The notes beneath the pieces are model-generated. The model was not told where the DNA came from, ran no database searches, and saw only the letters and a list, made by a program, of their open reading frames with translations. Shown here in pieces: positions 1-59,460 of a stretch of 64,000 nt of DNA. Position 1 is the stretch's first letter. Each line of letters opens with the position of its first letter. Origin of the DNA: a virus; IMG/VR virus record IMGVR_UViG_3300025108_000001, positions 1 through 64,000 of that record, one strand, 5' to 3'. A program made the translations under genes and the position numbers.

Positions 1-3000
1 CGTCTTTCTTAAAATTAATTCTTGAATATTGATTATTTATATTTAACCCCGCATTATCCAAATTAACATCACTTGTGAATGTTTTAGCGCCACTAAATGT
101 TTGTGTACCTGCTAATGTAGCATCACCCGCAGTACCCCAACTAAAAGAACCATCACCATCTGATAATAATGCGTCACCACTACTACCATTACCACTAACA
201 TTTAATTGGTCTGCTCCTATACCATCATCAGCAACCTTCAAAGTTAATTCGAATGGAGTACCTGTATCTCCTGTGCTTACATCTGTAAAGGTAATATCTA
301 AACCATTACCTTCATTAAACTTAATAAATCTACCATCAGGAATAAGAACATCTGTATCTGAACTGTCTCTTACAGTAAAGGCCATTTTAGCAGGTAATGC
401 TCCGAATGTTCCATCATGCTTTAAGAAATGTCCTGTTGTACCTGCTGATGGCAAAACACCACCATTACCTGTTCCAACTAAAGTTCTAATTTCTGGCGCA
501 GTTAAATCATCAGTAGCATCAGCATCTCCTGTAAAACCTAAGTCTGCTAATGTTAAGTTTCTTGTGGCTATTGTAGCATTAGCATCTGTAACGTGTCCTA
601 ATGTATCAGTAGTTATATTGAGGTCTAAATCTGAAATAACAGTTGCACCCGATAATAATGTTGTATCAATATCTATATCATCTCCATCATGTGTAGGATG
701 AGTATAATTATTAGCATTTTCAGCAATATTATCTAATTTTGATTTTAACGCATCAGTAAAGTCGTTTTCTGTAAGACCACCATCACCTACTGAATATGTA
801 GTGTTTGTATAATTAGAAGAATGAATTGTTCCCGCACTACTACTCGTCCAATCTATTACTTTATTAGCAGTTAAAGCACCGACATATCCCCATTGTGTCG
901 CATTAATTGTTGCAGTACCAATGTTTTCTAACTGCTCTCCTTCTGATGCTGTTAAATTAGAAAGTTCAGTTACTTGTGATATAGCAATTGTTTTATTTGT
1001 TAGTATGTCAGTAGTGTCTCTCCCAATTAAAAACGCATTAGCATTAGGTAAAGTAATAGTTCTATCAGCAGTAGGGTCAGTAATAGTTAATGTAGTCTCA
1101 TAATCATCAGAAGTAGCCCCTTCAAAGACAATAGCATTAGCCGCTTCCATAGTTACTGTGTCTATTTGTGTTGTTGTACCCGCTACATTCAAATTAGGAA
1201 CTAATAATGTTCCTGTGCTTGGATTGTATCTTAAAGCCCCTGTATCATCATGTAATGCACCTGTGCTTTCGTTTGCGAAAACAACAGGGAAGTTAGTGTT
1301 ATCAGTATTATCTGTAACTAAGATTATATTGTCAGAACCATCAAAAGATACTCCGCTAATTGTTCTTGCTGTTTCCAGTGCAGTTGCAGTTGGAGCAGTA
1401 CCAACTGCTAAATTTATTTTACCTGCTCCTACACCGCCATCTGCATAGGTTGCACTTATTCCTGTTTCAGTATTAGTAGCAAACATTGCACCTACTATAT
1501 CTTGAACCTGTTCTGTCGTTATTTGAGCAGAAGATATACTAGTTAAACCGCCTAATAGATTTAATTCAGTAGCACTAACAGTAACAGCAGTACCCGCAAT
1601 AGATAATTTACTATCGGGAATATCAAAGGTAGCATTATCTTTTATTCTTGCTACTTCTGTACCGTCATATTGTTGAAAGATAATTTCCTTTCCATCCACT
1701 GCGGGCATTATAATAGCATCAGAAGTTCCTATTGTTCCACTAGAAGTAGGGGTTGTTAATCTTAGATATGGGGCTATTCCTCCTTCATATCCCTGCCAAA
1801 AATAAGTTCCTTTGTTTGCACCGAGTCCGGCACTACCTATCAATACTCTATCGCCACCAATAATTTCCATAGAACCGAATGTTCCAGTACTACCTGTTTC
1901 ATTAGCAATATATGACCTATGAACATTACTAGTAGTATCTGATGTTATTCTTAAATAATCGTCTGTATTTATATCATCATAAACAAGTAGCCCGTCTGAA
2001 CTAGAAGTGCCTGTAACTTTTAGTTTACCAGTAAAGGCAGGGTCATCAGTAGGTTGTTTAGCAGTATTTGCAGCAATATCACCAATTGATGAAAGTTGAG
2101 CATCTGTTATTAGGTTCTTATCAGTTCCACTTGTAAAATTAGTAGTTGTAAATGTAGGTGTTGCCCCACTAATAACAGATTGGTCTAATGCTTTAACATG
2201 AGCAATTGCTGTTAATTCGCTATCCATTAATGCACCTGCTGATGTAACATTTGCTGTATCTGTAACATCAGCACCCGCTTCTATACCACTTAACACATGA
2301 GATTTGAGAACTGATATATCCATTCTCTTTAATGCGCCACTACCACTATTTTCACCTGCATCATTAAGAATTAATTCATCCGTATCAGCAAGTCCTGTTG
2401 TTAATGCCGTAGCACCTGTAATATCTCCTACACCGAAGTTAGATGCACCACTAGCAGATGCACCAATAGCAGTTCTAAAGTCCGAAGCACTTAACGCTGA
2501 AACACCATTATCGGCATCCATTCTAAGAAATCTTATTGCACCTGTATCTGCTAATGTAAATACTTCTGCACCAAAAGTAGAAGCACCCAAAGCAGTTCTA
2601 GCCGCAGTAGAATGCGCGGCAGTAATTACTGAAATCATTGGTGCATATACTTCTCCTATTACACCTTCTGTTGCGGCAAGTCTTCCTAAGAAGATATTAC
2701 CCGTTTCACCTGCACCAATGTTTTGCATTTTTGTAAAGGTAACAGCATCATTAGCCAACAAACCACTAGTAACTGAACCTGCTGTTCCTATTGTAGTGTC
2801 TAAAGTAGCACTAAAAACACCACTTCCATCTTTACCTAATCTTAAAAGACCGTTTGAACCTGTGCTTGGGTCTGCAATATGAAACGCTTTAATTCCTACA
2901 TTAGTAGCACCTAAGTTTGCTAATGCATTTGTTTGTTGAGTTGAGTTTAAACTTTGATTATTAACATCTACTCTCAATCTATTCCCTAAAGAAGTAGCCA

Positions 3001-6000
3001 TAGTGGTTGAAAATGAAGCATCATCACCTAAAGCCGCAGCCAATTCGTTTAGAGTATTTAATGCATCAGGTGATGAATCAACAAGATTTGAAATTTGAGT
3101 TCCAACATATGATACTATTGATTGTTGAGTAACAAGATGGTTTGCTGAATTAGAGGTCATAGCATCTTCATCTTTGACAGGAACAACAAAGTCTAAATTT
3201 CCATTAACATCATCATATCCTACTGTAATGAAAGTTTCTGTTCCGTCAAGCATACCCCCTACAAAATCTTCTATTTCTTCTTGAGTGCGAATAGTTTTAA
3301 GAGTATTAGCATCTATTTCCGCGAGTAATGTATCTGCTAACTTATCTTCTGTTATTGCATCATCAGCAATTCTGTCTGTTCCGAAAGTTCCGTCAGTAAT
3401 TTTATCAGCGTTTAGATTGGGAATATCTGTTGCCGCTAAGTCGGGAGTAAATGCATTACCTGCACTTAATGATAAACCGCTACCTGCTGTATAAGTAGTA
3501 TTTGTATCAGTAAATACAGCATTAGACGGAACATTCTTTCCAACAGTAAAAGTAGATACAGTATCAGCATCAATAGTCATTGCATTAATTTCACTAGCAG
3601 TTAATTGTGCAATAGGTGCAAGATTAGTTAATACAGAAGTGCTGTTAAGATAAGTTGTTAATTGAGCAACAGTCATTTCCCTGAGAGCAGAGTTAGATGT
3701 ATCATGTATTACGAATGAATCACCCGCAGCAAGAGAGTCTAGATTTGCTGCACCTGTTATATTACTAGCACCTAAAACAACAGAAGTTAGATATGTATTA
3801 GTATCTAAACTTGTGCTAAGAGTCCCATTTGTATTTGTTAATTTTAATAACCCATTAGTATTATTGTTAGGATTTGTAGTAGCAACTATTTTTTCACCAA
3901 TTGTAGTTACATCATCTAGTATGTCAAAATGAGCAGATGTCAATAACCCTGCCGCACTTGTTGTCGCGGCTGAATATGTGGTATCTTGAGTAGGGATTGT
4001 AAAATCAGCATCGGGTATAGTTACTGTTCTATTTGCAGTAGGTTCTGTAATACGAAGTGTAGTTTTTTCATCACCACTATCAGTATCATAACTGAATACT
4101 AAAGCATCTTGAACATCTATTTCTGTCTTATTTAAAGTAGTTGTTGTTCCCAGAACATTTAGATTACCTTTGATATTAATAGTGGTATCATTACCTGAAT
4201 CACCAATGTTTAAAGTATCATCACCAGTATAACTTCCTAATACTGTTGAAAGGTTTACCTTAGAAACATTTGAATCTGTATTTGTTATTGAACCGGATGC
4301 AGCACCAAGATAACCCCATTGTGCTGCTGTAATTGTAGTTGCTCCTATGTTTTGTATTGCTGTTATTTCTGATGCTGCTAAATCGTTGGTGAGAGCATAG
4401 ACTGTATCTGTATTAACACTAGAAATATCCAAAGTTTGATTAGTTCCACCCGATACAGTTGCCGTTATAGTTGAACCACTAAGAGATAATCCTGATAAAA
4501 ATTTATTCGTGTCTGTATTAACACCCGAAATATCAACAGTTAAATCTGCTAAACTTCCTGTTCTACCTATTGTTAATGTACCGCTACTAAAAGAAGCAGC
4601 ATCAACATAGTCATTACTATCAACAGAAGAACCCGCACCAATAGAGGTTCTAAATGCAGTTGCTTGATTAGTAGTTAAATCATCTGCTCTTGCTAAAAGA
4701 TTCGCTACGCTTACATTGTCAACTGCGGTATTACCTGCAAGAGCAGTACTAGATGTTGTTCCTAATGCTAAAGAACTTGTACCCGCACCAATATTACTCA
4801 ATATTGTTGTTTTGTCATCATTATCAATACTAGTAGAAGCAACCAAAGCAGCAGTTACATTTGTTGCGTTAGCAGTTAGTTTAGCAGTATTAGTAGAAAC
4901 AGCAGAAGCATCAGTATAACTAACTTTTGCAGTATTAAGACCTATCGCAGTAACGTTAGTTGCTATGTTAGTCGCATTAGTCGTTATATTACTAGACATT
5001 GTGTTTAGGTTAAGTGCAGAATTAACAGTAAGGTGTCCTACTTTCGTAGCGTCTGCTGATGGATATGTATTCTTAGCAGTATTAAGATTTAGAGCAGTAA
5101 CTAAGTTTTGAGTGCTACCACCATTAGGTATAGTAATATCCCCTGTAAACGTGGGGTCGTCAAACATAGTAGTTTTACTTTCATTAGTTACATTCCCTAA
5201 ACCTACATCAGAAGCAGTTGTACCTACATCTGAATGAGTTACACCTGCTCTAATAGCAGCAGTAGTTATATCTGAAACATTGGTTAATCCTACCATTGCT
5301 TTAGTAATACCACTTACCGTTCCTGTAAATGTAGGACTAGCGAGATTAGCCTTTAAATCTAAAGCAGTTTGTTGTGCGGTTGAAACTGGTTTAGCAGTAT
5401 CAGCAGTGTTGTTCACATTTCCTAATCCTACATCACTAGCACTAGCGGCAGTTAATATTTCAGATTGTAAAGTAGCAGCAGATTTATTATCCACGTCTCC
5501 TAATCCTACATCACTGGCCGTAGCAGCAGTAAGAGTTGCTGCTTGAATAGTTGCTTGACTAACATTAGTTACATTATCTAATCCCAATGTTGCAGTAGTT
5601 ATTTTAGAATTATCAAATATAACATCAGCATTACTAGCATTTTGTATAACTACCGCAGTTCCACCATCATTAATTTCTAATTTACCTGCGGCATTTATTC
5701 CTAATGTTAAATTATTAGAAAGTGCCTTACCTGCAATAGTTCTAGAAGTAGGGACTTTGGCGGCTAAATCAGAAGTTAAACTTGTAATTTTACTTTGTGC
5801 TAAAGTAGGTATTCTAGCAGTAGCAAAAGTTCCACTTGTTATTTTAGCAGTTGAAAGAGAAGGTATCAATGATTCAGTTACAGCACCCATTAATTCTGTT
5901 AAACTTAATTTTTTAACTGCACCCGAATCACTATTATCACGGAAAATTAAACTATCGTTTGCTATGTCTATACTAGATAAAGCAGTTAAACCACTAATAA

Positions 6001-7618
6001 TATCAGTAGTTCCAATGTTAGTATTTGTATCTGTATTTACCGATGCAATATCTAGAGTTTGGTTTGAGCCACCCGTTACAGTAGCAGTTATTGTAGTTCC
6101 ACTTAATGATAGACCGGAAAGAAATTTATTTGTATCTGCTGTCATGTCATCAACAACAACATTAATTTTACCACTAGTATCATCGTAAGTAGCACCAACT
6201 CTAGTTTCTGTATTGCTAGTAAACATAGCACCAACAATATCTTGTACTGCTTCTGTCGATATTTGTGAACTAGTAGTGTATCCTAATCCCGTTACGAAAG
6301 TATGTATTTGGTCTGCCGTAGCCAAACCTGTACCACCATCAGCAATAGCAGCAGTTCCTAAAGTAGCAGCAGCACCTAATCCTAAATTAGTAATAGCGTT
6401 AGATTTTTGTGTTGCTGTTAAGTTTTGACTTGCAGAATCTATCCTTAATCTATTACCTAAAGCAGTTGAAGTTGTTGTAGCAAAATTAGCATCATCTCCT
6501 AATGCTGCTGCTAATTCATTTAAAGTATCCAAAGCAGTAGGTGCAGAACTAACTAGCCCCGATACTTGACTATCTACATACGCTTTAACTGATTCCGCAG
6601 ATGCGACATTAGTAGCGGATGCCCCTGTCATTGTATCGCTATCTATTAATGGTAGTTGGGTATTAGTATCAGTAGAAGCAATTGTAATATTATTAGCATC
6701 TGTGTGTGTTAGTGTAACATTAGAACCCGCTACAAACTTAATATCTTGAGTGCCTGAACCTGCGCCACTTTCTGTTAATCGTAATATTATATCATTAGAA
6801 GAATCTACAAAAGACGTAGCATATTCATTTTGAGTATTAGTATTAGCAATATAACTAGGAGTACCAAAAGTACCATCGTGTTTCAGGAACTCTCCGGCAC
6901 TACCTGCTGATGGAATTAGACCTCCGTTTCCTGTGGAAATAGCAGCAATTGAAGAAGTTACATCGGCAGTTCTTGCTAAAGTTCCTGTTGAAGATGGAAG
7001 AGTAATAGTAGCAGAACCATATGAAATAGTTCCTGTCGGATTTATTTTGAAAGTTTCAGAACCACCATTTATTGCAGAAAAACCTCTAGAAGTTTGTACA
7101 TTTCCTGTCAACCATTGTATATCTCTAGTAGCCCCAATAGCAGAACCCGCAGTATATTTAACTAAAGCAATTGGTATATCTCCACTTTTTAATTCTGCTA
7201 CGGTAGCAGTACTTGTATTCGCTTTACCTGTTACTGCCCCTTCTCTGAAATACAAGTTGTTTAACGTTTCACCACTTTCTGTACCGTCTGCAATTACAAT
7301 TAAACCATACCAATCTTTACCCCCCGAAGCATTTGCAGTAATAGCGGGGTTGTGAGTTGTTATTTTTTTATTTGGAACAGAAACAACCATACCATCTCTA
7401 ATAGCAGTTAAAGCATTATCACCGCCATCAGTTTTCTCTATCTCATAATGGGTATAATTTGAAGTAGTTCCTTGAGTAATAACTGCTGTACTAATTAATC
7501 TATTTTGACCCATTGCAACATTTAAGGTTTTAATTATACCTGTATGTATTGCATCAGTTCCGTCAACTAATTGCGTTGTTGCTCCTAACCTACTAATAAA
7601 TCCTGTATTGTTAACCAT
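1..7618 (-). CDS. Giant modular tail fibre/adhesin (>2,500 aa, runs off the left edge)
   Basis: ATG at 7618 overlaps the stop of the upstream gene (MVNNTGFISRLG...). It is absent from the ORF track, consistent with no stop in the window, and all ten + strand shadow ORFs share one frame. Thr/Ala/Ser/Gly-rich with fibre-type repeats (LDTLNELAAALGDD x2, DVGLGNVDN, FLKHDGTFG x2). Confidence 0.85.
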   Translation of the reverse strand, partial: MVNNTGFISRLGATTQLVDGTDAIHTGIIKTLNVAMGQNRLISTAVITQGTTSNYTHYEIEKTDGGDNALTAIRDGMVVSVPNKKITTHNPAITANASGGKDWYGLIVIADGTESGETLNNLYFREGAVTGKANTSTATVAELKSGDIPIALVKYTAGSAIGATRDIQWLTGNVQTSRGFSAINGGSETFKINPTGTISYGSATITLPSSTGTLARTADVTSSIAAISTGNGGLIPSAGSAGEFLKHDGTFGTPSYIANTNTQNEYATSFVDSSNDIILRLTESGAGSGTQDIKFVAGSNVTLTHTDANNITIASTDTNTQLPLIDSDTMTGASATNVASAESVKAYVDSQVSGLVSSAPTALDTLNELAAALGDDANFATTTSTALGNRLRIDSASQNLTATQKSNAITNLGLGAAATLGTAAIADGGTGLATADQIHTFVTGLGYTTSSQISTEAVQDIVGAMFTSNTETRVGATYDDTSGKINVVVDDMTADTNKFLSGLSLSGTTITATVTGGSNQTLDIASVNTDTNTNIGTTDIISGLTALSSIDIANDSLIFRDNSDSGAVKKLSLTELMGAVTESLIPSLSTAKITSGTFATARIPTLAQSKITSLTSDLAAKVPTSRTIAGKALSNNLTLGINAAGKLEINDGGTAVVIQNASNADVIFDNSKITTATLGLDNVTNVSQATIQAATLTAATASDVGLGDVDNKSAATLQSEILTAASASDVGLGNVNNTADTAKPVSTAQQTALDLKANLASPTFTGTVSGITKAMVGLTNVSDITTAAIRAGVTHSDVGTTASDVGLGNVTNESKTTMFDDPTFTGDITIPNGGSTQNLVTALNLNTAKNTYPSADATKVGHLTVNSALNLNTMSSNITTNATNIATNVTAIGLNTAKVSYTDASAVSTNTAKLTANATNVTAALVASTSIDNDDKTTILSNIGAGTSSLALGTTSSTALAGNTAVDNVSVANLLARADDLTTNQATAFRTSIGAGSSVDSNDYVDAASFSSGTLTIGRTGSLADLTVDISGVNTDTNKFLSGLSLSGSTITATVSGGTNQTLDISSVNTDTVYALTNDLAASEITAIQNIGATTITAAQWGYLGAASGSITNTDSNVSKVNLSTVLGSYTGDDTLNIGDSGNDTTINIKGNLNVLGTTTTLNKTEIDVQDALVFSYDTDSGDEKTTLRITEPTANRTVTIPDADFTIPTQDTTYSAATTSAAGLLTSAHFDILDDVTTIGEKIVATTNPNNNTNGLLKLTNTNGTLSTSLDTNTYLTSVVLGASNITGAANLDSLAAGDSFVIHDTSNSALREMTVAQLTTYLNSTSVLTNLAPIAQLTASEINAMTIDADTVSTFTVGKNVPSNAVFTDTNTTYTAGSGLSLSAGNAFTPDLAATDIPNLNADKITDGTFGTDRIADDAITEDKLADTLLAEIDANTLKTIRTQEEIEDFVGGMLDGTETFITVGYDDVNGNLDFVVPVKDEDAMTSNSANHLVTQQSIVSYVGTQISNLVDSSPDALNTLNELAAALGDDASFSTTMATSLGNRLRVDVNNQSLNSTQQTNALANLGATNVGIKAFHIADPSTGSNGLLRLGKDGSGVFSATLDTTIGTAGSVTSGLLANDAVTFTKMQNIGAGETGNIFLGRLAATEGVIGEVYAPMISVITAAHSTAARTALGASTFGAEVFTLADTGAIRFLRMDADNGVSALSASDFRTAIGASASGASNFGVGDITGATALTTGLADTDELILNDAGENSGSGALKRMDISVLKSHVLSGIEAGADVTDTANVTSAGALMDSELTAIAHVKALDQSVISGATPTFTTTNFTSGTDKNLITDAQLSSIGDIAANTAKQPTDDPAFTGKLKVTGTSSSDGLLVYDDINTDDYLRITSDTTSNVHRSYIANETGSTGTFGSMEIIGGDRVLIGSAGLGANKGTYFWQGYEGGIAPYLRLTTPTSSGTIGTSDAIIMPAVDGKEIIFQQYDGTEVARIKDNATFDIPDSKLSIAGTAVTVSATELNLLGGLTSISSAQITTEQVQDIVGAMFATNTETGISATYADGGVGAGKINLAVGTAPTATALETARTISGVSFDGSDNIILVTDNTDNTNFPVVFANESTGALHDDTGALRYNPSTGTLLVPNLNVAGTTTQIDTVTMEAANAIVFEGATSDDYETTLTITDPTADRTITLPNANAFLIGRDTTDILTNKTIAISQVTELSNLTASEGEQLENIGTATINATQWGYVGALTANKVIDWTSSSAGTIHSSNYTNTTYSVGDGGLTENDFTDALKSKLDNIAENANNYTHPTHDGDDIDIDTTLLSGATVISDLDLNITTDTLGHVTDANATIATRNLTLADLGFTGDADATDDLTAPEIRTLVGTGNGGVLPSAGTTGHFLKHDGTFGALPAKMAFTVRDSSDTDVLIPDGRFIKFNEGNGLDITFTDVSTGDTGTPFELTLKVADDGIGADQLNVSGNGSSGDALLSDGDGSFSWGTAGDATLAGTQTFSGAKTFTSDVNLDNAGLNINNQYSRINFKKD

Positions 7619-7982: not shown

Positions 7983-10900
7983 TTATACATCCTTTTCACT
8001 CTTGTAGGTTTTTAATGTTGTTGACCCTGCACCAAATCCTAACAACGTATCGAAACCTAATGCACTATCAAATCCTAAGTTGGCACTAGAACTAGTTATC
8101 TTATATTCTATTGTGCCATTTTGTATTGTAAATGAATCAAATACACTTTTTCCTACAACGCTTTGTACAGAATTTTTACCGAATAAAGTAAGGGAACTTC
8201 TAGTCTGATTACTAGAAAGTTCTCCCAATCTTTCAGCAATTGTTTTATTAAAAGTTCCAACGGTAATAGTTGATATTCCATCTAAAATATTTTCAATTTC
8301 AAAGACTTGATAATCGTTAATCGGTATGTCGTGATTCGGGAAATCTAAAGTTAAAATATCTCCCGCTTCTAATAATTCTAATCCTTTTTTTTGTAATTTT
8401 AATTTTATTTTTCGTATATCTGCATTATGTATTTGCAGTAGTTGCATTGCCTTTATTTTTGCATCTGATAACGATTTAATTGAAGAATCAACATGACGAA
8501 TAGTTTTTGTTCTTTTCTTTGTTGGTATTTCTGATTCTGCCTTAACTCCATCACCAACCACAATTATTTTATTTGCTTTATCAAATAATGATTTATTACT
8601 CTCCACCGAAATTAAATTATGTCCTGATTTATAGTTAATAGAAAATCTCCTAAGACTATGAACATCTTCTATATTCTTCGCTACTATTTCACCATTAGAT
8701 ATTTTATAATCTAATCCTCTTTTATTTGCTAGGAAATTAATCGCACTAAAAGAATCTGTATCTTCAAATTTAACATTGGAAACATGAGTTTTTCTTTGTC
8801 TTCTAATTAGTTCATCGTAAGGAGAAGGCACGAAAATTATACTGTCAACTGTTATAGTAGTAGCACTTACAGCAGAAACCTTTCCTACCAAATATCCTTC
8901 TTGTGTATAAAGTACATCTCCTACAACAACATCAATTGGTTTATCAACACAAGTTATTACATTTCCACTAACTGAATTAACTAAGTTAGTTGTATAATCT
9001 CTAAGACTTTGTTCGTAGTTCAAATCTAACCCTGCTTCTTTAGCAATATTTTCTATTTCATTTTCAACAATTCCACCAATACTAAATGTAGTTCCTAGAT
9101 AACATTTTGTTGGTTTTATTGATAATTTTTTAGGAATAGTTACATCAATAGTTTCACCAAAAGAAACACAACCATCACCATTTAACACACCATCGTATTC
9201 AAATTTAACAGAACTACTAGTTTTAGTAACTGTCAAAGATTTAGTTTGTAAATTAATACCATCGGTAATATAACAGTTTATTTCAGCATTGTTTGAAAGT
9301 AAATCAGTACTAATGTTTCCTAATTGTCTTCGTTCTAAATATATATTAGTGTTATCTATATCCAACAACATATACATTGAATATATTCCTTCACTAAATT
9401 GGTCTTTACCCGTATTTTCTCCAGTTCTCAAATTTTCGGGAATCGTATCATATTTTAATCCAGAATCTTGCATGACATTTACTTCAAAATAATCGGGGGT
9501 TTCTTCAAAGACTGTATCTGATAATCTCATCAATCTAAAAAATGTTCCATCAGTAGAATTTACTATTGCCTTGTCAAATGTTAATGTATGTGCATCGGGA
9601 CTACCCGATACAGTATGAGATAATATTTTTCCAATATAATTCGGTGTTCCTTTTCCTACAATCGCACCGTTTTCAGAAGTAGGCAAAAAGTTTCCATCTA
9701 TTGTTTTACTTCCGACAATGTAATATCCTGTAAGATTAGGTACAAAGTTTAACCAATGATGTGTAGAATTAGTATTCATAGTAAACGTGATTTCTGCACC
9801 TAATGCTAAATCAGATGTAATATTAAACTGTGGTTTCAAAAACATTTGTGCGGAATATAATTCTCCACTAGTATTTGACGCATTAGCATGAGCATAAAAC
9901 CGAGTGTCAGATTCTAAGTCCGTATCATATCCTTCTCTATTATCAAAAGGATAATATTTAGTTTTTGTTCCTATAAAAACCATATTATTACTAGAACTAG
10001 TATTATTATTCGCGTTGTTAGTTATAATATTACCAGTAGGTTGTCCTGTAATTAACCTGTCTCCTATGTTATTATCTAAACTAGGTAAATCATCTAATAT
10101 TAATGGACTACTAGTTATTTTAAGTAAAGTTTTGCTGTTCTTTTTACCCGATTTCATATCCTTAAATATCGCAATACAATTTTCATAAATATCTTTACTA
10201 GGCCAATTTATATCATAAGGGGTTTGAGTGAAGTTTGATGATGTATCGTGGTTGGGTAAATATGGTTTGCACAAAGCAGATAATACCTTAGAAGTGTGTT
10301 TCATTTGCACAGTATGAGAACTTCCAGTTATTCTTTCCACATGAAAAGCCGAGTCTGTTATAACATTTTCACTATTTATTGATTCTAAAGTTCCACCATC
10401 ACTAATTATGGGTAACAAAATATTTGGTGGGTTGTAGTCATTACCATTTCTCTCTAATAAAGAATAATCAAAATAACTAGTTTTAATATTAGGACTTAAC
10501 ATATATATTTGAGACATATTTAATGAATGAGAAATTTTTGTTAAACTGTTAATTTTGTTTCCTTTTTGGGTGTATAAATCATGGGTATCTATATCACTAG
10601 TATTTCCACTATTATATTTTTTATATTCACTTAAGTTTAACAATTCAATTTCATCTATTCCCTTTACAGATTCGGCATCTACGGAATTGAAATGCCAATC
10701 AAATGTTGCTTCTACTAATCTAACAATGCCCCATCTTTTAAGTTGGCCTGTTGTTTTAGTTGAACTTTTTATTTCCGATATTTCATAATCGTTATCATCT
10801 CTAATTGTAGCGTTTGTTTTGCCGTGATGGTCGTGATTAATTTGTGTACCTTTTGTTCCCTTGTTTTCAAACATCAACCCATATTCACTCATAGACCTAT

Positions 10901-13900
10901 CAGAAAATGATATATTGTTAAATCTTAATTTTGAAGTAGGATATAGGTCTCCCGTAGCATACAAAGAATATGGCCTTGCTCTCCAATCATTGTTAACTAA
11001 ATCTTTTATATTACCTAAAGTAATAGTAGTGTCTACATTTTTAGTTCCATCTGCTCTGCTAAACCAAGTTATATCTGAATAATTACTTGCCATATCTCTT
11101 TGGCCGTTTGGCAACACCTTAATTCCTGTTGTATATCCTTTGATTTTATGTTTCCTTTTAGCAGATTGATAAATATTATTAGAAGTATATGAATCATAAG
11201 GTATTAGAGTTTGATTCTCAAATGATTGTAAATCAATAAACTTGTAGGTATCTTCGGGTGCAAAATAATGTTGAAATTGATGTTTTAATTTATGCACAAA
11301 ACCACCTGAAGGAAGATTACTATTCAATAAATAAAAACCTGCGTGGTGGCTAAGAGTATCATTTATTGGTGATAAAAACCTATTATCATATGTATTATTA
11401 TCCTGTACCCCTAATGCTATTGGAAAATTAGGTGCAACAGTTATTATATTTTTAGAATCATTAACATCATTAACATCTATTACATGAAACATTTCTGATG
11501 AGACAATATTTTTTTGTGTGTATTCTATACTAGTTTCTTTCTCCTTTCCTATTTTTAATAAATATGTACTAGAAGGCATATCTTCATCAACGTTTATGCC
11601 ATTACTAACAATATTTCTTTTATTTACCTTTGAAGGTTTCAATATATCATAACCATAAGAACCATCCGTTTCAAAAGAACCATTATTAGAAGTTAATTTT
11701 AAATCTGAATAAGTAAATCCGTTATTACTTCCCGAATCAGCACTAGAATCATATGTAAAATTTAATCCGTTATTGAAAATTAATCCTTTTTCAGAAGTAT
11801 TTGTGAAATCAGTAGGTCTAGTTGTTTCATTTACGTTAGTTGCTAGTGCCTTTACACCCGAAATAAATCTAGAAGAATTATCTAATGGATTGTAATAATA
11901 TATGTTAGTATTATCTGCTATCGAAGCATATGCCTTGTCTTTCAATGTAATAATAGTTTTTTCACTACCCGATGCAAGGCTATTATCTCCTGAGTGAGAA
12001 CCACTACTATACTCTCCTAATAATTCATAAGATGAATTAAAGAATAATGTATATTTTGTAAAGGTCTGATGTCCGTCAACTTCTATTGTTATTGTCGTAT
12101 CTTTCACAGTTGTTCCTCTTGAATTATGAAAAGAAGTAATATTATCTATATGAGGATTTAACGTTGAATATACTATATCATCTGTAAAGTTTAAATTTTT
12201 ATTTACAGTATTCGTAAGTAAATTAGCAACTTCATCCCTTCCTGAAATAGTATAAGTCATCATTCCATTTTCATTTTTAGATTCTATATCTTCCACATTA
12301 CCGTTGAATATTTCTTCATTTAATGTGAAACTACCATTGTAATAATACATTCTAGAAATAGGAGTTTTCTGATAATATTGTTTTGTAGGTTCTAAAACAG
12401 TTAAATATTTATGTGTCTTGTCTCCATAATTTACTCTTAAATCATGTCCTCTTTTATTAGTTATTGATAACCTTGAATTGTATAATTTTGTATTCTTAAC
12501 TTCTATCGTTCTATTATCTAAAGTCAACCTATCGCTTTGGTCGTGTCTTACTGTTGTATCGGCTGCGAACTCAACATTTAGTTTATTGTTAGAATAAGGA
12601 ACTATATAACAATCAACATTCGTTACTATTTTAACAGCATTACTTCCTCCTAACCCACCTTGTTGAGTAACAAAAACATTATTATTAACAGGCTTAATAG
12701 CATCTAAATAAATTTTTTGCGTAGTAATAGTATAGTCTCTTGTAGCAACATTAGATACCACATAATTATACCCCTCAACTTCTATAATAGTACCATCGGC
12801 TAGAATAGAAGCATAATCATACTCTCCTGTTAATCCATTTATAGTTAAAACATTAGTTTCATATGCAGTTGAAGTAACAGTATGTTCTATTTTTTTAAGT
12901 TTTATACTATCTGAAAATAAACCATTTCTAACTACCATTTTAGAATCTTCTGTAATTTTCAAATGTTGAGTTCCACTATTATCTAAAGTGAGAACAGTAG
13001 CCATTTTACTCATTTTATTTTTAGGGTTATTTACTATTGTATCTAGTGTTGTAGGAATTTTATCATTCTTTAAAGAAGCAGTTTCAAATGTTATATATTT
13101 CATAGCCCCGTTTAAATTTTCACTTTCAGTCCAAACATTACCGGAAAAATCATATGAATCGGTAGAACTTCTTTTCATTAGCGGAAACGCTTTATTCCAA
13201 TATAAAGGGTCAAAATTACTATCATCTTCATCATCAACTAATACATTATCAACCAATATAGCATCCATTAAACCTCTGCCTTTATTTTGTATGGTATTGT
13301 CATATTTTCTTTCCGTTTTGAACACTACATTTTGTACAGTTTCGTTTATGTTCAAAGTAATATTTAACCCGTTACCCGCAGATAATGTTAAAGAAGGTCT
13401 GTAAAAGTCAATATAAAATCTATCATTACCATATAATTTTTCTATATTTCCTAAATAACTTGTTCCATTAAATATTGACATACCTTCTGCTAAATCATCA
13501 TAATGTGCAGAAGAAACTGTAAAGTAATTATTAGTACCACCTGCTTGATATTGGGTATGTCCCCCTACAACATTTATTGCTGTAATAGTATCGCTATTAT
13601 TCCAAGTCCTACTAGATGTTACAGTATATTTTTCATTATAATCTAATTGGTCTTTTTCTTCCAACCTATCATTATAAAAATAAAACGTAGGGGTATTTAC
13701 GTTACATATTTTATCATATTTATCTGTTGTAGCAGACGAATCCCCTCTAAGACCGTATGATACTGCTACCAAATCTGTATCTGTTTTTGCCGCACCTTTG
13801 TATATTTCAAACTTAGTTCCCTTTGGTATTTCACCATTATATTTAGGACTGAACTCTACACCATCACCAAACTCATCAAAGGAAACTATTCTAGTTATTT

Positions 13901-14411
13901 TAGCAAAATGAGCATTAACTGAATCAACCCCCCTACCACTTGCAGTATCAACAATATCATGGTTTAAAATTATAAAATAATCATGGTCTTCTATATCAAA
14001 ACCTACTCTATTAGGAGGAAAATCTAAACTAGAATGATAAGTTGCTCGTAGGTTAGTAGCAATATTATTAACAGTTTCATCGGCAAACTTAGAATCATAT
14101 ATTTTTACCTTGAAAGATGGTGTTGTTTCTTTATTTGTAGTGGCTACTATCTTTGTTTGAACTGTTCCATCCTTTCTAGGTGCTTTTCTTATTTCAGTAA
14201 ATATAATGGATTCAACAGGACTTGCTGTTATATATCCTGTTTCATTTTCTAAACCTGCTGTATATAATGTAGGATTAACTGAAACATTTTTGAAAGCCTT
14301 TGTTTTGTTATTAGTATTATTTCTACTACGGTAAATATTAGACCCATTGCTAATACTTATTTCATTTTCACTAACACCTGTATTCAAAGGAAATAGCATT
14401 CGACCCGACAT
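7983..14411 (-). CDS. Very large tail-tip/baseplate hub-like protein (2142 aa)
   Basis: Beta-rich. Contains IFNGNVEDIE..YTISGRD and C-terminal NKIIVVGDG...VDSSIKSLSDAK...LEAGDILTL segments typical of tail hub proteins; lies downstream of the tape measure gene. Confidence 0.65.
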   Translation of the reverse strand: MSGRMLFPLNTGVSENEISISNGSNIYRSRNNTNNKTKAFKNVSVNPTLYTAGLENETGYITASPVESIIFTEIRKAPRKDGTVQTKIVATTNKETTPSFKVKIYDSKFADETVNNIATNLRATYHSSLDFPPNRVGFDIEDHDYFIILNHDIVDTASGRGVDSVNAHFAKITRIVSFDEFGDGVEFSPKYNGEIPKGTKFEIYKGAAKTDTDLVAVSYGLRGDSSATTDKYDKICNVNTPTFYFYNDRLEEKDQLDYNEKYTVTSSRTWNNSDTITAINVVGGHTQYQAGGTNNYFTVSSAHYDDLAEGMSIFNGTSYLGNIEKLYGNDRFYIDFYRPSLTLSAGNGLNITLNINETVQNVVFKTERKYDNTIQNKGRGLMDAILVDNVLVDDEDDSNFDPLYWNKAFPLMKRSSTDSYDFSGNVWTESENLNGAMKYITFETASLKNDKIPTTLDTIVNNPKNKMSKMATVLTLDNSGTQHLKITEDSKMVVRNGLFSDSIKLKKIEHTVTSTAYETNVLTINGLTGEYDYASILADGTIIEVEGYNYVVSNVATRDYTITTQKIYLDAIKPVNNNVFVTQQGGLGGSNAVKIVTNVDCYIVPYSNNKLNVEFAADTTVRHDQSDRLTLDNRTIEVKNTKLYNSRLSITNKRGHDLRVNYGDKTHKYLTVLEPTKQYYQKTPISRMYYYNGSFTLNEEIFNGNVEDIESKNENGMMTYTISGRDEVANLLTNTVNKNLNFTDDIVYSTLNPHIDNITSFHNSRGTTVKDTTITIEVDGHQTFTKYTLFFNSSYELLGEYSSGSHSGDNSLASGSEKTIITLKDKAYASIADNTNIYYYNPLDNSSRFISGVKALATNVNETTRPTDFTNTSEKGLIFNNGLNFTYDSSADSGSNNGFTYSDLKLTSNNGSFETDGSYGYDILKPSKVNKRNIVSNGINVDEDMPSSTYLLKIGKEKETSIEYTQKNIVSSEMFHVIDVNDVNDSKNIITVAPNFPIALGVQDNNTYDNRFLSPINDTLSHHAGFYLLNSNLPSGGFVHKLKHQFQHYFAPEDTYKFIDLQSFENQTLIPYDSYTSNNIYQSAKRKHKIKGYTTGIKVLPNGQRDMASNYSDITWFSRADGTKNVDTTITLGNIKDLVNNDWRARPYSLYATGDLYPTSKLRFNNISFSDRSMSEYGLMFENKGTKGTQINHDHHGKTNATIRDDNDYEISEIKSSTKTTGQLKRWGIVRLVEATFDWHFNSVDAESVKGIDEIELLNLSEYKKYNSGNTSDIDTHDLYTQKGNKINSLTKISHSLNMSQIYMLSPNIKTSYFDYSLLERNGNDYNPPNILLPIISDGGTLESINSENVITDSAFHVERITGSSHTVQMKHTSKVLSALCKPYLPNHDTSSNFTQTPYDINWPSKDIYENCIAIFKDMKSGKKNSKTLLKITSSPLILDDLPSLDNNIGDRLITGQPTGNIITNNANNNTSSSNNMVFIGTKTKYYPFDNREGYDTDLESDTRFYAHANASNTSGELYSAQMFLKPQFNITSDLALGAEITFTMNTNSTHHWLNFVPNLTGYYIVGSKTIDGNFLPTSENGAIVGKGTPNYIGKILSHTVSGSPDAHTLTFDKAIVNSTDGTFFRLMRLSDTVFEETPDYFEVNVMQDSGLKYDTIPENLRTGENTGKDQFSEGIYSMYMLLDIDNTNIYLERRQLGNISTDLLSNNAEINCYITDGINLQTKSLTVTKTSSSVKFEYDGVLNGDGCVSFGETIDVTIPKKLSIKPTKCYLGTTFSIGGIVENEIENIAKEAGLDLNYEQSLRDYTTNLVNSVSGNVITCVDKPIDVVVGDVLYTQEGYLVGKVSAVSATTITVDSIIFVPSPYDELIRRQRKTHVSNVKFEDTDSFSAINFLANKRGLDYKISNGEIVAKNIEDVHSLRRFSINYKSGHNLISVESNKSLFDKANKIIVVGDGVKAESEIPTKKRTKTIRHVDSSIKSLSDAKIKAMQLLQIHNADIRKIKLKLQKKGLELLEAGDILTLDFPNHDIPINDYQVFEIENILDGISTITVGTFNKTIAERLGELSSNQTRSSLTLFGKNSVQSVVGKSVFDSFTIQNGTIEYKITSSSANLGFDSALGFDTLLGFGAGSTTLKTYKSEKDV

Positions 14412-55639: not shown

Positions 55640-55792
55640 TAGTAAAGTTAATTAAATTAACGATAATAAATAAAAAAAAATAAAAAAAATTTGCAAACAA
55701 AGCATATGGTTGGAGGCTAGGTTTAATCCAACCATATGGTATGGCTGTGACTTTGGTAAGGCCAACCCTATCTGAATATAGTGAGTTATAGT

Positions 55793-55876
55793 ATGTCAGA
55801 AGTTAAGGACTTACACGATGAAATAAAAATTTGGAGACAGCATATGAAAGAATGTAGGAGTGGTTTAAATGAATAA
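55793..55876 (+). CDS. 27-aa leaderless microprotein (not in ORF track)
   Basis: MSEVKDLHDEIKIWRQHMKECRSGLNE; ATG directly follows TAGT, 42 nt from the start of CTTTG; overlaps the next gene. Confidence 0.5.
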   Translation: MSEVKDLHDEIKIWRQHMKECRSGLNE

Positions 55877-56264
55877 TATATTTCAACATAGGCATTATAA
55901 TTATCTTGCTTTAGAATTGCCCTTTATATTGGGTTTAAATGAAGCCGAGGTTTCTTCTATGGCTACTAATCTGAAATACCATAATGAAAATTTTAATCAT
56001 AATAGATTTATGAACACATGGCGTAGAGAAGTTGAAAGAAGGAATGATGAAATGGAAATTACCATAGATAATCTTTCACATTATACATTTGATACAGAAG
56101 CACACAATTCGGGTAAATGTCCTGTTTGTGGAATAAACAACATAGGATATTACAAAGACGAAGTTGGCGTACTACGCCAATGCTTTGACTGTGGTTCTGA
56201 ATGGAATGATGAAATGGAAATTACCATAGAATTAACCGAAGAAACAGGAAGTGAAGTAGAATGA
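55869..56264 (+). CDS. Hypothetical protein with Zn-ribbon module
   Basis: CPVC...CFDC flanked by a duplicated NDEMEITI. Confidence 0.65.
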   Translation: MNNIFQHRHYNYLALELPFILGLNEAEVSSMATNLKYHNENFNHNRFMNTWRREVERRNDEMEITIDNLSHYTFDTEAHNSGKCPVCGINNIGYYKDEVGVLRQCFDCGSEWNDEMEITIELTEETGSEVE

Positions 56265-56539
56265 ATATAGAAGAATATGAGAAAATGAATTGGAAAACAC
56301 CATCTGATGAATTAGAAGATGCGGTGGAAAACTTAGTTGCAGAAGTGAAAAAGTTGCGTGAAGTCATAAGGAAAACCGAAAACCTTTGTACTCACAATTA
56401 TGTGACTATATCGGACTTTGAGATTAACGGCATAAATGTCAGCGTTACTATCCAATGCGATAGGTGCGGAGAAACACAGCAACAAACTTTAGACATAGAG
56501 CAGATAATATGGGATTTGGAATTGGGGTGGATAGATTGA
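56261..56539 (+). CDS. Hypothetical Zn-binding protein
   Basis: CTH...CDRC; ATGA overlap. Confidence 0.65.
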   Translation: MNIEEYEKMNWKTPSDELEDAVENLVAEVKKLREVIRKTENLCTHNYVTISDFEINGINVSVTIQCDRCGETQQQTLDIEQIIWDLELGWID

Positions 56540-56657
56540 GTAAAATATTAGGTTAGAACAAACCTAACAAAAATTGTTCCCCTGAGGGGGGTTGCGTTTC
56601 TCAAAGTTCCACTTACAACCATATGGTGTGGTGGCGACTTATACATGAGTAATGTAA

Positions 56658-56687
56658 TTACTCTTGTTCTTCTTCTTCTTCGTCCAC
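56658..56687 (-). CDS. 9-aa acidic micropeptide MDEEEEEQE
   Basis: Perfect GGAGGTGA SD 5 nt upstream of GTG. Confidence 0.5.
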   Translation of the reverse strand: MDEEEEEQE

Positions 56688-56822
56688 GTTTATCACCTCC
56701 CAATGTGGTAGCGCATCAATACTGATGCTACCATATGGTTGTGCGCGTTGTAAAACTTTGAGAACAATGTGCTGCAACCCGATGGTCTTTCGACCAAAGG
56801 GCTACCATGCATTGTGAGTGCC

Positions 56823-56855
56823 TTAATTTTCCTCTTCTTCTTCATCGTCTTTCAT
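56823..56855 (-). CDS. 10-aa acidic micropeptide MKDDEEEEEN
   Basis: AAAGGAGGT SD upstream; promoter-like element upstream; GAAA-loop hairpin downstream. Confidence 0.55.
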   Translation of the reverse strand: MKDDEEEEEN

Positions 56856-56980
56856 GGTAGCATACCTCCTTTCATACTATACAGTCTGATAACTAATATA
56901 TGAGGTATTACTCAAAGTTTCATACCATATGGTTGTGTAACACTTTGTAGTTCATAACCCCACTATTTTTAGTAAAATAG

Positions 56981-57196
56981 TATCATAGGGCTTCGGTGAA
57001 AGTTGATTCTTTTCATACTTCTAGCAGTGGGAAATTCGTTGTGCTAATATTGTTCAACCGATTAATTATACAATACTGTTCTAGAATAGTATGCATATGT
57101 CATTGAAATTTTAATAGAGACAAGAACGAATGTTCTGACAAATCTAAAAGTGGGATAAATCCTGTGATTCAATCAATTCACTTCAGCCCTGTGATA
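56981..57196 (+). ncRNA. Candidate ~216-nt structured RNA
   Basis: Terminal pairing TATCATAGGGCT/AGCCCTGTGATA (one G-U on the + strand), inner GTGAA/TTCAC and TTGATT/AATCAA, internal hairpins, no ORF in the track. Confidence 0.5.
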
Positions 57197-57207
57197 TCTT
57201 GGGAATT

Positions 57208-57429
57208 TTACATTTGATTTAGTGCATCAAGGTAGGTCTTGAGTACATTGAGTGCTTTACCTGTTTCTTCTACTACTTGAGAAGGTGAATCACCTCTAAT
57301 TTTAAGAGACTTAACAATGTAGACGTGATTTGAACCCGACTTAGATTGGGAAATCTCAATCTCATAGGGGTAACTCAAGTTTAGTATCTGTTCGGGTTGC
57401 GTTGTTTGAACTAACGGTTCTGTTGACAT
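57208..57429 (-). CDS. Leaderless 73-aa protein
   Basis: ATG follows TAGT, 27 nt from the start of a CATATA box and 43 nt from the start of CTTTG. Confidence 0.7.
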   Translation of the reverse strand: MSTEPLVQTTQPEQILNLSYPYEIEISQSKSGSNHVYIVKSLKIRGDSPSQVVEETGKALNVLKTYLDALNQM

Positions 57430-57573
57430 ACTACCTAGAACAAAAAAGAGTATATGGGATAGAACGACAAAGTGTATCCTACCATATGGTTGTAAGTGTG
57501 CTTTGCTAACGAAACCCTATCCTGTTTTGACTTTACCAATAGTGTAAGAGGGTGAAACCCAATATATACAGGA

Positions 57574-58059
57574 ATGATAAATATGACAGAACAACAAACA
57601 ATAGAAGAAAAAATTGATTTAATAACGACATGGATTGATGAAACTGATAGTTTCAACGATGATAATAATATGAGTAATTGGGCAACTTCTTCATGGGCTT
57701 ACGCTCTTGAAGAATATGCGGATACTGGCATAAAATCAGTAATCACAACGACAATTTCTCAATTTTCTAGGGCTGCTAAAAGATTTAAACTTAGTGATTA
57801 TCCTCTAGGCACTAGAGGTTCAAACTCTGTTTCTGCTGAAACTCAAGCGGAAATTGACGCACACAACCCATTCTTAGATTTTATGATGGAAGCATACGAG
57901 GCTCTGCCTGAAGTTAGCCACATTCACGCTAAAAAATCAAAGGCACGACCTGACAGACGCTACCTATCAGCGAAAGATTTTAGAAATCATTGGCTAGGTA
58001 TAATCACAGACAACGCAAAGGAGGCCGCTAAAACGGCTGATGTGGAGGCTACTCAATAA
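57574..58059 (+). CDS. Hypothetical protein flanked by long inverted repeats
   Basis: 161 aa (start may be 57583); UTRs carry perfect 15-bp plus 7-bp inverted repeats. Confidence 0.75.
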   Translation: MINMTEQQTIEEKIDLITTWIDETDSFNDDNNMSNWATSSWAYALEEYADTGIKSVITTTISQFSRAAKRFKLSDYPLGTRGSNSVSAETQAEIDAHNPFLDFMMEAYEALPEVSHIHAKKSKARPDRRYLSAKDFRNHWLGIITDNAKEAAKTADVEATQ

Positions 58060-58339
58060 TTGGGTAGCCTTCACCCTCTTACACCTCAGGGTTTACATTA
58101 ACAAAGCAACATTCCAAACCATATGGTTGTAGGTCTTAGATACACAAGGATAGTAAATGGAATTTATGTACTTTATGGTGGGTCGGTCGGCTTATATATG
58201 GTTTCGTGAATCCAGTGGTGTAAATCAAGAGATGACATCATTTGCCTGAGTGTAATCTATATTTCATATAAAGATAGTATCCTTGTGGAAAATACCTTTC
58301 ACTACCTACTACAACACTCATTTTGATGACTCATACTCT

Positions 58340-58700
<361 letters not shown>

Positions 58701-58739
58701 ATTACATCACACTCACACATAAGGATTGTCTCGTAAATC

Positions 58740-59460
58740 TAGGACTTGAAACTACTGAAACAGGTATAGCAATATTCCCTCAGTAGCAGAAGGTGTTAGT
58801 TGACCTTGTGGGAACTAGGGGTTTTTTACAGTAATAAGAACCGAGTAAATAATTTGTTATCCTTAGCGGGATTGCAAGTTAAACCACTCAGAAGAAGATG
58901 CAGAAGTTTGCATTAGAAGAACCAAACCAAACAGTTGAGATTCAAACAACTGAATTACAAGTAGCGAAAAATGACCTTCATCAGAACGGTAGTGAAGTAG
59001 CAAACGTCTTTCAAGTGCGAATTAATTCTTAGTAGGGTTGGGAAATCTAAAAAATGCTTTCTTTGGAAAAGGTATTTCCGAAGAACTAAGCGCAATAATG
59101 ATGAAAGCAATTTTAGTCATGGTCTTTCGAGGCTATGCATTTGTAAGTAATATTAGTAGTCGGCATAAGCAGTGAAACATCATTGGTAACATTTGACAAT
59201 TGTTATCATACCACCTTCGTGTAAAGCGGCATAGTACGTTTTTTCTTTCCCCTTTCAAATTCAAAAATATCCTGTATGGGTTTTACCCTTACAAATGGAC
59301 TTGTCTTTACTGTCATAGAGGCAAGTCCTACAACTCAAAATATCTTGATAATTGATACTGTCATCTGATATAACTGAGTTAGGTTTTAGATAATAATAAA
59401 TTGGATAAATTCGTTTCGTTCTGTAACGTGTTGGCATCTCCTATCTAGTCGTGTGGTGCG
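58740..59460 (+). ncRNA. Candidate large structured non-coding RNA
   Basis: About 700 nt with no ORF of 60 aa or more, dense in hairpins (CTACTGA/TCAGTAG, CAGTTG/CAACTG, CTTAGT/ACTAAG, AAATGCTTT/AAGGTATTT, GGACTTGTCT/AGGCAAGTCC). Confidence 0.45.

Follow-up and report, generated by a model that had tools for sequence, protein, structure and literature searches.

Analysis of a 64,000-bp stretch of viral DNA (the window), which is the first 64 kb of the 99,250-bp IMG/VR virus record IMGVR_UViG_3300025108_000001, revealed an array of palindromes that are coupled to a short CTTTG motif and to promoter-like sequence. The record has direct terminal repeats and is rated complete. Minus-strand genes extend up to 55.6 kb and plus-strand genes run from 57.5 kb, and the cumulative GC skew reaches its minimum and turns at this same strand switch. 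All six copies of CCATATGG in the window lie here, between 55732 and 58126; 0.53 copies would be expected, and a count of six was reached in none of 100 shuffles. The 10-bp palindrome ACCATATGGT followed after 6-14 nucleotides (nt) by CTTTG occurs seven times in the window against an expectation of zero. When the spacer is widened to 5-16 nt, eight oriented occurrences are found in the whole genome, all of them within 55.7-58.1 kb.

At five sites, a start codon or a TAGT motif lies beyond CTTTG at an almost constant distance. An earlier, sequence-only reading of the window had listed five such spans, and re-reading of the coordinates shows each to be correct: 42 nt from CTTTG 55751 to ATG 55793 on the plus strand and from CTTTG 56917 to ATG 56875 on the minus strand; 43 nt from CTTTG 57472 to ATG 57429 (minus) and from CTTTG 57501 to the TAGT ending at 57543 (plus); and 39 nt from CTTTG 56943 to the TAGT ending at 56981 (plus). 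Taking TAGT to occur at 0.7% of positions and allowing two end positions, 42 or 43 nt, the probability that at least four of the eight sites would comply is 2.6e-6. The CATATA reported at -27 is indeed found before ATG 56875 and ATG 57429, and the other three starts have CCCTATC or CCCCACTAT at that place. TAGT, though present at the cited sites, is only the local form of a general signal, R(-3)-N-Y(-1) followed by R(+1). The fifth start has two candidate positions, 56982 (39 nt) and 56987 (44 nt); in relatives, the conserved block sets in at GGGCTTCGG. Not all of the ATGs are ordinary gene starts: ATG 55793 opens 27 codons, and ATG 56875 opens just 7 (MKGGMLP), overlapping a 10-codon poly-Glu open reading frame (ORF). 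We infer that these two mark transcript starts. Promoters of this CTTTG/ACC-TAT type were sought elsewhere in the genome, and none was found outside the array.

The arrangement is conserved across a clade of viruses. A search with the adjacent helicase retrieved 41 viral loci, and in all 18 that reach upstream of the helicase (46-99% identical in sequence) 4-10 palindromes occupy the same place. The composite motif CAAAG-N5-12-ACCATATGGT-N4-11-CTTTG is present in at least 119 IMG/VR stretches, mostly on contigs of 90-100 kb. To measure spacing, we used 105 related loci, amounting to 1.17 Mb and 625 unique oriented sites, and measured how far each CTTTG lies from the first ATG beyond it that begins an ORF of at least 30 codons. 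The resulting histogram has 17, 30, 37 and 19 cases at 41, 42, 43 and 44 nt, respectively, against a background level of about 2-3 cases a bin; it also has a shoulder at 45-47 nt. The 3,344 CTTTG sites that lack a palindrome give no peak, 3.2% of cases falling at 41-44 nt against 3.5% for a uniform distribution, and palindromes without CTTTG give no spacing peak either. The spacing rule is kept in relatives with such divergent helicases, and the proposal of a promoter architecture peculiar to this virus holds for its clade, the architecture being of archaeal type.

The further proposal, that the promoters fire in both directions, describes a minority of sites. Two of the six sites in the window appear to serve both directions, yet across the clade promoter-like sequence is present on both sides of just 25 of 460 unique palindromes (about 5%). 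Most palindromes are symmetric sites that serve one promoter, with the other side abutting the hairpin of the previous cassette. The non-promoter sides mostly read CAAAG-N5-palindrome, and in relatives they adjoin the C(UUCG)G hairpin with which the previous cassette ends. A position-weight-matrix classifier of promoter sides was too blurred to be of use.

In 596 Gb of cellular (prokaryote) genomes the composite motif has 41 scattered matches, approximately the number estimated from chance. The sole clustered case is a 14.7-kb contig (L078; NZ_NZTP01000027.1) assigned to the metagenome-assembled genome (MAG) of an 'Altibacter sp.' (Flavobacteriaceae), which contains seven palindromes and cassettes closely similar to those of the viral locus L021. 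This contig is most likely viral DNA mis-binned into the MAG and is unfit as host evidence. A host regulon, which the sequence-only reading had suggested looking for, did not emerge from this search, whose level of matches is about that estimated from chance and which did not reach Marine Group II genomes.

The core of the promoter was defined from the 103 cases with ATG at 41-44 nt, aligned on the ATG. In 95% of them position -3 is a purine, in 95% position -1 is a pyrimidine, and positions -7 to -4 are A/T-rich. Further upstream, A/T accounts for 84-91% at -25 to -22, and positions -30 to -28 are C-rich. The AT-rich box peaks at -27 to -22, within a non-canonical CCYTATAW that spans -30 to -22. 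A box about 26-27 nt upstream of the start is where archaeal promoters have their TATA box, and an initiator with pyrimidine at -1 and either the A of ATG or G at +1 is likewise as found in archaea. Where a purine-rich transcription factor B recognition element (BRE) would be expected, directly upstream of the box, A is slightly favoured at -36 to -33, in addition to the C-rich stretch. As the box is non-canonical, the earlier description of these promoters as having a 'weak TATA' may be called fair. Shine-Dalgarno sequences are absent from the first genes of cassettes, and internal genes have GGAGG or GGTGA. Judged by its sequence, the anatomy is that of archaeal promoters for leaderless mRNAs. 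In a second class of sites a G rather than an ATG is found at 41-45 nt, and conserved leaders with structure come next, GCTTCAAGGGG and GTGYAAGAGGGT among them; thus one spacing serves both leaderless mRNAs and RNAs with structured 5' ends. When the sites were read as sigma-70 or Bacteroidota promoters, no consistent -35/-10 or -33/-7 fit was obtained.

The most unusual feature of the element is a covarying stem. The spacer between the palindrome and CTTTG varies from 5 to 12 nt because CTTTG sits in the loop of an inverted repeat, GGT+x ... x'+ACC, in which the bases that follow GGT after the palindrome are the reverse complement of those that precede ACC of the downstream box. Among 205 sites with distinct flanks, the longest stem averages 4.57 bp, compared with 3.58 +/- 0.055 bp for permuted partners, and 43 stems reach at least 6 bp where 6.3 would be expected. 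In sites chosen by spacing only, the two positions immediately past GGT/ACC are paired in 25 of 32 and in 28 of 35 cases, the permuted value being about 13-14, and all four Watson-Crick pair types are present. The 3' spacer lengthens with the 5' spacer. With short stems the distance from CTTTG to ATG stays at 42 nt; with long stems it grows approximately one for one, ACC being kept 26-28 nt from the ATG, and this growth accounts for the shoulder at 45-47 nt. Two controls were negative: the box does not directly repeat the left flank (z about 0), and no symmetry was seen between the two flanks of the palindrome. For a stem acting at the RNA level, an excess of G.T pairs on the sense strand was looked for and not found.

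The genome in which these elements occur encodes a terminase large subunit (TerL) and a portal protein, which identify a tailed virus; the TerL resembles that of Bacteroides phages at 28% identity. It also encodes an RFC clamp loader, for which the search returned no cellular relative, a family B polymerase (PolB) split over two ORFs, and two ATP-dependent ligases of the three-domain type. The same gene set has been described for magroviruses, viruses assigned to Marine Group II archaea, among which a split PolB is the mark of group B (PMC5434244). Against the group B features in that paper, we find the head module (TerL and portal), RFC, the ligases, the split PolB and a length of 99,250 bp where about 90-100 kb is expected; MCM, AEP, PCNA and RadA were not among the genes looked for. 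We conclude that the genome is that of a magrovirus-like archaeal tailed virus, with the host assignment itself resting on the literature.

Outside the window, at 67156-68145 of the genome (L050:5156-6145; L numbers designate loci in our set), lies a gene for a 329-residue TFB/TFIIB homologue. It contains a TFIIB zinc ribbon (E = 9e-7), and alignment with yeast TFIIB spans the ribbon through the first cyclin fold (E = 6.5e-5). The protein is conserved within the clade, with 39 homologues, every one on contigs of no more than 96 kb, and it is present in five of five complete relatives that carry arrays, at 25-35% identity. The presence of TFB, RFC, the split PolB and the ligases, together with the Shine-Dalgarno pattern, is the reason for reading the region in archaeal terms.

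The features of the array are collected in Table 1.

Table 1. Sites, promoters and cassettes of the palindrome array (window coordinates; starts are predicted)
Feature	Position	Strand	Details
Degenerate site	55699-55710		CAAAG fused to GCATATGG; 28-nt imperfect inverted repeat with site P1
Palindrome P1	55731-55740		ACCATATGGT
Promoter 1	55751-55792	+	CTTTG 55751-55755; ACC-CTAT box 55765-55771; TAGT 55789-55792; predicted start ATG 55793
Cassette 1	55793-56592	+	Leaderless 27-codon ORF first
Cassette 1, 131-residue Zn-ribbon ORF	55869-56264	+	Has Shine-Dalgarno sequence
Cassette 1, 92-residue ORF	56261-56539	+	
Cassette 1, 3' hairpins	56553-56575 and 56580-56592	+	
Site P2	56602-56627	-	Palindrome 56618-56627; CTTTG 56606 to 56602, facing cassette 1 hairpins; non-promoter side
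Site P3	56730-56760	+	Palindrome 56730-56739; CTTTG 56756-56760; within 15-bp stem
P4 minus promoter	56876-56933	-	Palindrome 56924-56933; CTTTG 56917 to 56913; CATATA at -27; predicted start ATG 56875 (42 nt)
P4 plus promoter	56924-56987	+	CTTTG 56943-56947; predicted start 56982 (39 nt) or 56987 (44 nt)
Non-coding, RNA-like cassette	56982-57207	+	Conserved block about 56987-57190
P5 minus promoter and gene	57208-57490	-	Palindrome 57481-57490; CTTTG 57472 to 57468; CATATA at -27
Leaderless 73-residue gene of P5 minus promoter	57429-57208	-	43 nt from CTTTG
P5 plus promoter	57481-57544	+	CTTTG 57501-57505; ACC-CTAT box; predicted start 57542-57544 (41-43 nt)
161-residue gene unit	57542-58084	+	Gene 57574-58059; perfect 15-nt inverted repeat 57542-57556 / 58070-58084
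Site P6	58102-58127	-	Palindrome 58118-58127; CTTTG 58106 to 58102, facing end of 161-residue unit; non-promoter side

The region is probably an accessory gene block of the virus, and probably an early one. Gene content between the palindromes is highly variable; only a family of 155-215 residues is present in all arrays, and the 161-residue protein belongs to this family, though distantly (hhalign probability 85%, E = 6e-6). DNA homology with the closest relatives, L018, L009 and L012, starts and stops at the palindromes, with breakpoints at 55715-55741, 56587, 56728-56743, 56937-56951, 57477-57491 and 58129. The nearest relative, L018, lacks cassette 1 (55740-56586), has the 161-residue cassette in duplicate and carries other sequence in place of the RNA-like cassette (56952-57197). 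Its P2-P3 segment is in inverted orientation (L018:1459-1615 against window 56587-56739), an outcome that would be expected of recombination between two palindromic sites. Because the same element of about 60 bp flanks every cassette, it also provides a crossover point for gain, loss, flip and duplication.

Several other features of the block and its surroundings were observed. The arms of the repeat around the 161-residue gene consist of GTGTAAGAGGGTGAA and its complement, an arrangement that recurs in L018 and L012; as the repeat is perfect and brackets the gene, the 5' and 3' ends of the mRNA could pair. Two poly-Glu micro-ORFs on the minus strand, MKDDEEEEEN (56855-56823) and MDEEEEEQE (56687-56658), each have a strong ribosome-binding site and lie in separate palindrome-bounded intervals; the former is downstream of the leaderless 7-codon ORF and is followed by a GAAA-loop hairpin kept in L009 and L018. 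A leaderless cassette gene of 94-101 residues, found at L020:5192-5473 and with homologues in eight related loci, belongs to the Pfam family Kyano_Gp96 (E = 2e-19). This family takes its name from T4-like cyanophages, and small genes are therefore apparently common to archaeal and bacterial marine viruses. Beside the helicase gene is an ORF-free, origin-like stretch (58340-58640) in which AT-rich repeats of the ATAGTATA type occur together with a (CT)17 tract and repeats of GAGAATGAGAAA; L009 matches 58342-58844 at 89% identity. Elsewhere in the genome, a ThiF/E1-like protein (68407-69036, L050:6407-7033; E = 1.5e-18) adjoins the TFB homologue, and a 2142-residue ORF at 7983-14411 has no match at all. 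Giant ORFs of at least 2539 residues (window 2-7618, minus strand) and 2432 residues (genome 91928-99226) abut the record ends and may be a single reading frame across the terminal repeat. Pfam and PHROGs recognised only tail-fibre-like pieces in these proteins, and a virion RNA polymerase of the kind that uses N4- or crAss-like hairpin promoters was discarded as a candidate.

The RNA data comprise assembled contigs from three runs with small shares, in which uncovered parts are uninformative. One contig is identical to the window over 57857-58084 and ends at the last base of the 15-nt arm, the partner arm of which begins at the predicted start of the 161-residue unit. Contigs from two metatranscriptome studies cover 56998-57210 of a 97%-identical relative and stop 14-15 nt before 56998, near 56983 and the predicted start. 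These ends, at 58084 and near 56983, are weak hints at the predicted starts. Matches of a further contig, X3, to 56661-56681 and 56829-56849 were set aside as 21-nt poly-GAA only. The non-coding cassette itself (56982-57207) contains a conserved block of about 200 nt that is approximately 79-80% identical in L166 and L119, where the upstream sequence is unrelated. Its predicted fold pairs the two ends, at -56 kcal/mol (z = -2.8). Rfam gave no match at gathering score, the only hits at E < 1 being chance-level microRNA hairpins.

We consider it likely that the palindromes belong to regulated archaeal promoter modules, each heading a small accessory cassette, in which the palindrome and CTTTG dock a factor, with activation the favoured mode. 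The module would have four parts: the palindrome; the short covarying repeat, which starts within the palindrome and presents CTTTG in its loop; the AT-rich box, some 27-22 nt before the start; and the initiator. Each cassette would be headed by this composite element and would usually end in a GC hairpin, C(UUCG)G in relatives. Host RNA polymerase with TBP and TFB would start 42-43 nt after the C of CTTTG, giving either a leaderless mRNA whose first base is the A of ATG or an RNA that begins with G and has a structured 5' end. A factor with two-fold symmetry would dock at the palindrome together with CTTTG and determine how active the weak core is. By analogy only, three properties incline us towards recruitment: the position of the site, upstream of the BRE region; the non-canonical nature of the box; and the symmetry of the site, which sometimes serves two directions. 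On this analysis the activator role that had been proposed for the palindrome is plausible. The factor may be a host protein or an unrecognised viral one, and the viral TFB homologue may take part. The motif does not vary, yet the TFB homologues share only 25-35% identity, which makes a conserved host protein no less likely than a viral one.

A number of observations weigh against this view. Pfam and PHROGs detected no helix-turn-helix, ribbon-helix-helix or winged helix-turn-helix domain in the ORFs of the array or in 82 further ORFs, and the TFB homologue is the only classical DNA-binding domain protein found in the genome. AlphaFold models of the 73-residue protein (beta-beta-alpha; predicted local distance difference test score, 72) and the 161-residue protein (helical; score, 77) have no match in the PDB at E < 1. 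A plain activator model gives the covarying stem no function, and folded as DNA hairpins the eight stems of the window have low stability (-0.8 to -8.2 kcal/mol). The position of the AT-rich box shifts by about +/-2 nt, and the CTTTG-ATG distance grows where stems are long, so that more than one element is a candidate for fixing the start. Assembled RNA contigs cannot show transcript starts. Finally, both the weakness of the core and the early timing of the cassettes are assumptions, the latter made by analogy.

Repression has to be taken seriously, since the ACC-YTAT box repeats the adjacent half-site in inverted form and a factor bound there would cover the TATA-like box. The same array would then carry operators at the palindrome and CTTTG for shut-off or autoregulation of early cassettes, in the manner of Aca-type regulators at the early genes of Sulfolobus viruses. 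In archaeal viruses, regulatory sequence is indeed shared among the promoters of early single genes, and inverted repeats there have been proposed to bind repressors (PMC11065993). An element identical at every cassette would, moreover, suit coordinated shut-off. On the other hand, archaeal repressors usually overlap BRE/TATA or the start, and the palindrome is farther upstream than the BRE/TATA region, at about -50 to -70. The non-canonical box suggests a core in need of help, and no conserved regulator gene was found in the arrays. We regard repression as possible but doubtful. Structure-specific recombination sites, of attC or shufflon type, would be folded into hairpins and read by a recombinase, with the promoter spacing secondary; the covarying stems, the conserved GGT/ACC base and the conserved CTTTG loop are attC-like, and breakpoints, inversion and duplication fall exactly at the sites. 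This reading is nevertheless improbable, as it leaves the 42-43 nt phasing to ATG and the initiator unexplained. Pfam scans of the ORFs of the genome detected neither an integrase nor a recombinase domain, the cassettes have their own promoters and both orientations, unlike those of integrons, and homologous recombination between 60-bp repeats suffices, as in the promoter-early stem-loop (PeSL) elements of T4-type phages (PMC2839356, PMC4122927).

The stem invites one more structural interpretation. Each strand of a site reads ATAR-[GGT..CAAAG..ACC]-ATAT-[GGT..CTTTG..ACC]-YTAT, and if a factor or negative supercoiling were to extrude the hairpins, the ATAT of the palindrome would become contiguous with the YTAT box. 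A canonical 8-bp TATA box would then be created at about -31 to -24, with ACC and its flank at the BRE position, and CTTTG, exposed as a single-stranded loop, would be recognised by a structure-specific protein, perhaps the viral TFB or a protein of the virion. The distance from the end of ACC to ATG, with its mode at 27-28 nt, fits. Such a switch, were it real, would make promoter strength depend on DNA topology at entry, but we hold it to be a long shot. It is less probable again that the palindromes are origin iterons, similar to origin recognition boxes, from which replication and transcription arms diverge. The array does coincide with the skew minimum and strand switch beside the helicase gene; however, every site is phased to a gene start, the sites are spread over 2.4-5 kb between expressed cassettes, and the adjoining stretch at 58340-58640, conserved in relatives, is a better origin candidate. 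Least credible of all are bacterial sigma-70-type phage promoters with a repressor operator, forming a switch like that between lysis and lysogeny. For these one can cite the divergent sites at the strand switch, the affinity of TerL to the Bacteroides phage type and the relative in a Flavobacteriaceae MAG. Yet no -35/-10 pair at 17 +/- 1 spacing is common to the sites, and TFB, RFC and ligases of archaeal type are encoded in the genome. The contig in the MAG is a fragment of 14.7 kb that is most likely mis-binned, and neither an integrase nor a repressor was found. Overall, we favour the regulated archaeal promoter module, with a factor docking at the palindrome and CTTTG.

Magroviruses count among the most abundant viruses in ocean surface waters, and both they and their Marine Group II hosts are uncultured. 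The magrovirus literature that we searched makes no mention of promoters or transcription factors, including the TFB homologue. The present analysis gives a clade-wide promoter model with predicted starts that metatranscriptomic 5'-end data can test, and it supplies a list of candidate early or host-takeover genes. The motif CAAAG-N-ACCATATGGT-N-CTTTG is a sequence tag with which these viruses and their accessory block can be found in metagenomes, its background in cellular genomes being near the chance estimate. The covarying stem and the co-occurrence of a viral TFB raise questions about the regulation of archaeal promoters.

Comparison with known systems places the element among two recognised kinds, repeated promoter/terminator cassettes and early regulatory sequences shared within archaeal viruses. 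The closest likeness of the first kind is to the PeSLs (PMC2839356, PMC4122927). In both, a composite of terminator hairpin and promoter motif is repeated between small, variable genes, mostly of unknown function, and the breakpoints of indels, replacements and rearrangements that separate close relatives lie within the motif. PeSLs contain a sigma-70 -35/-10 promoter, whereas here no such pair is shared and the anatomy is archaeal, with a TATA-like box, an initiator and leaderless mRNAs. There is, in addition, a strict palindrome with two-fold symmetry and a capacity for two directions, and a covarying repeat with CTTTG in its loop. The element works like a PeSL without being a member of that family, and the array is an archaeal counterpart of PeSL-type cassette shuffling.

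Of the second kind are viruses of Sulfolobales, for example SIRV2, whose early anti-defence genes are also single-gene units with variable content that share an extended regulatory sequence (PMC11065993). A cognate regulator is expected in both systems. That of SIRV2 is Aca8, and here no regulator was recognised by Pfam or PHROGs; the SIRV2 core is a canonical strong BRE plus TTTAWATA, in contrast to the non-canonical CCYTATAW of the present element, whose conserved part lies upstream. Archaeal upstream activating sites of the Ptr2, TFB-RF1 and GvpE types are dimer-type sites upstream of BRE/TATA in promoters with a poor core. Our element occupies the same position, just upstream of the BRE/TATA of a poor core, and differs in being bipartite, with a variable base-paired linker, and in being identical at all promoters of the clade. 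Virus-encoded TFB/TFIIB homologues have been reported in Italian rudiviruses and in some Asgard viruses (PMC9501531, bioRxiv 10.1101/2021.07.29.453957); here the homologue belongs to a tailed marine virus and co-occurs with a single clade-wide promoter element, and a link between the two is a hypothesis. Integron attC sites are alike in that sequence varies while structure and base triplets are conserved, and in bounding small cassettes. The stems here are far shorter (5-10 bp), the centre is a strict palindrome, the cassettes have their own promoters and occur in both orientations, and Pfam scans revealed no tyrosine recombinase domain. We found no description of this form of element in the literature searched; what distinguishes it from the known kinds is the strict palindrome, the placement of CTTTG in a covarying loop, the fixed phasing to leaderless starts and its occurrence in magroviruses.

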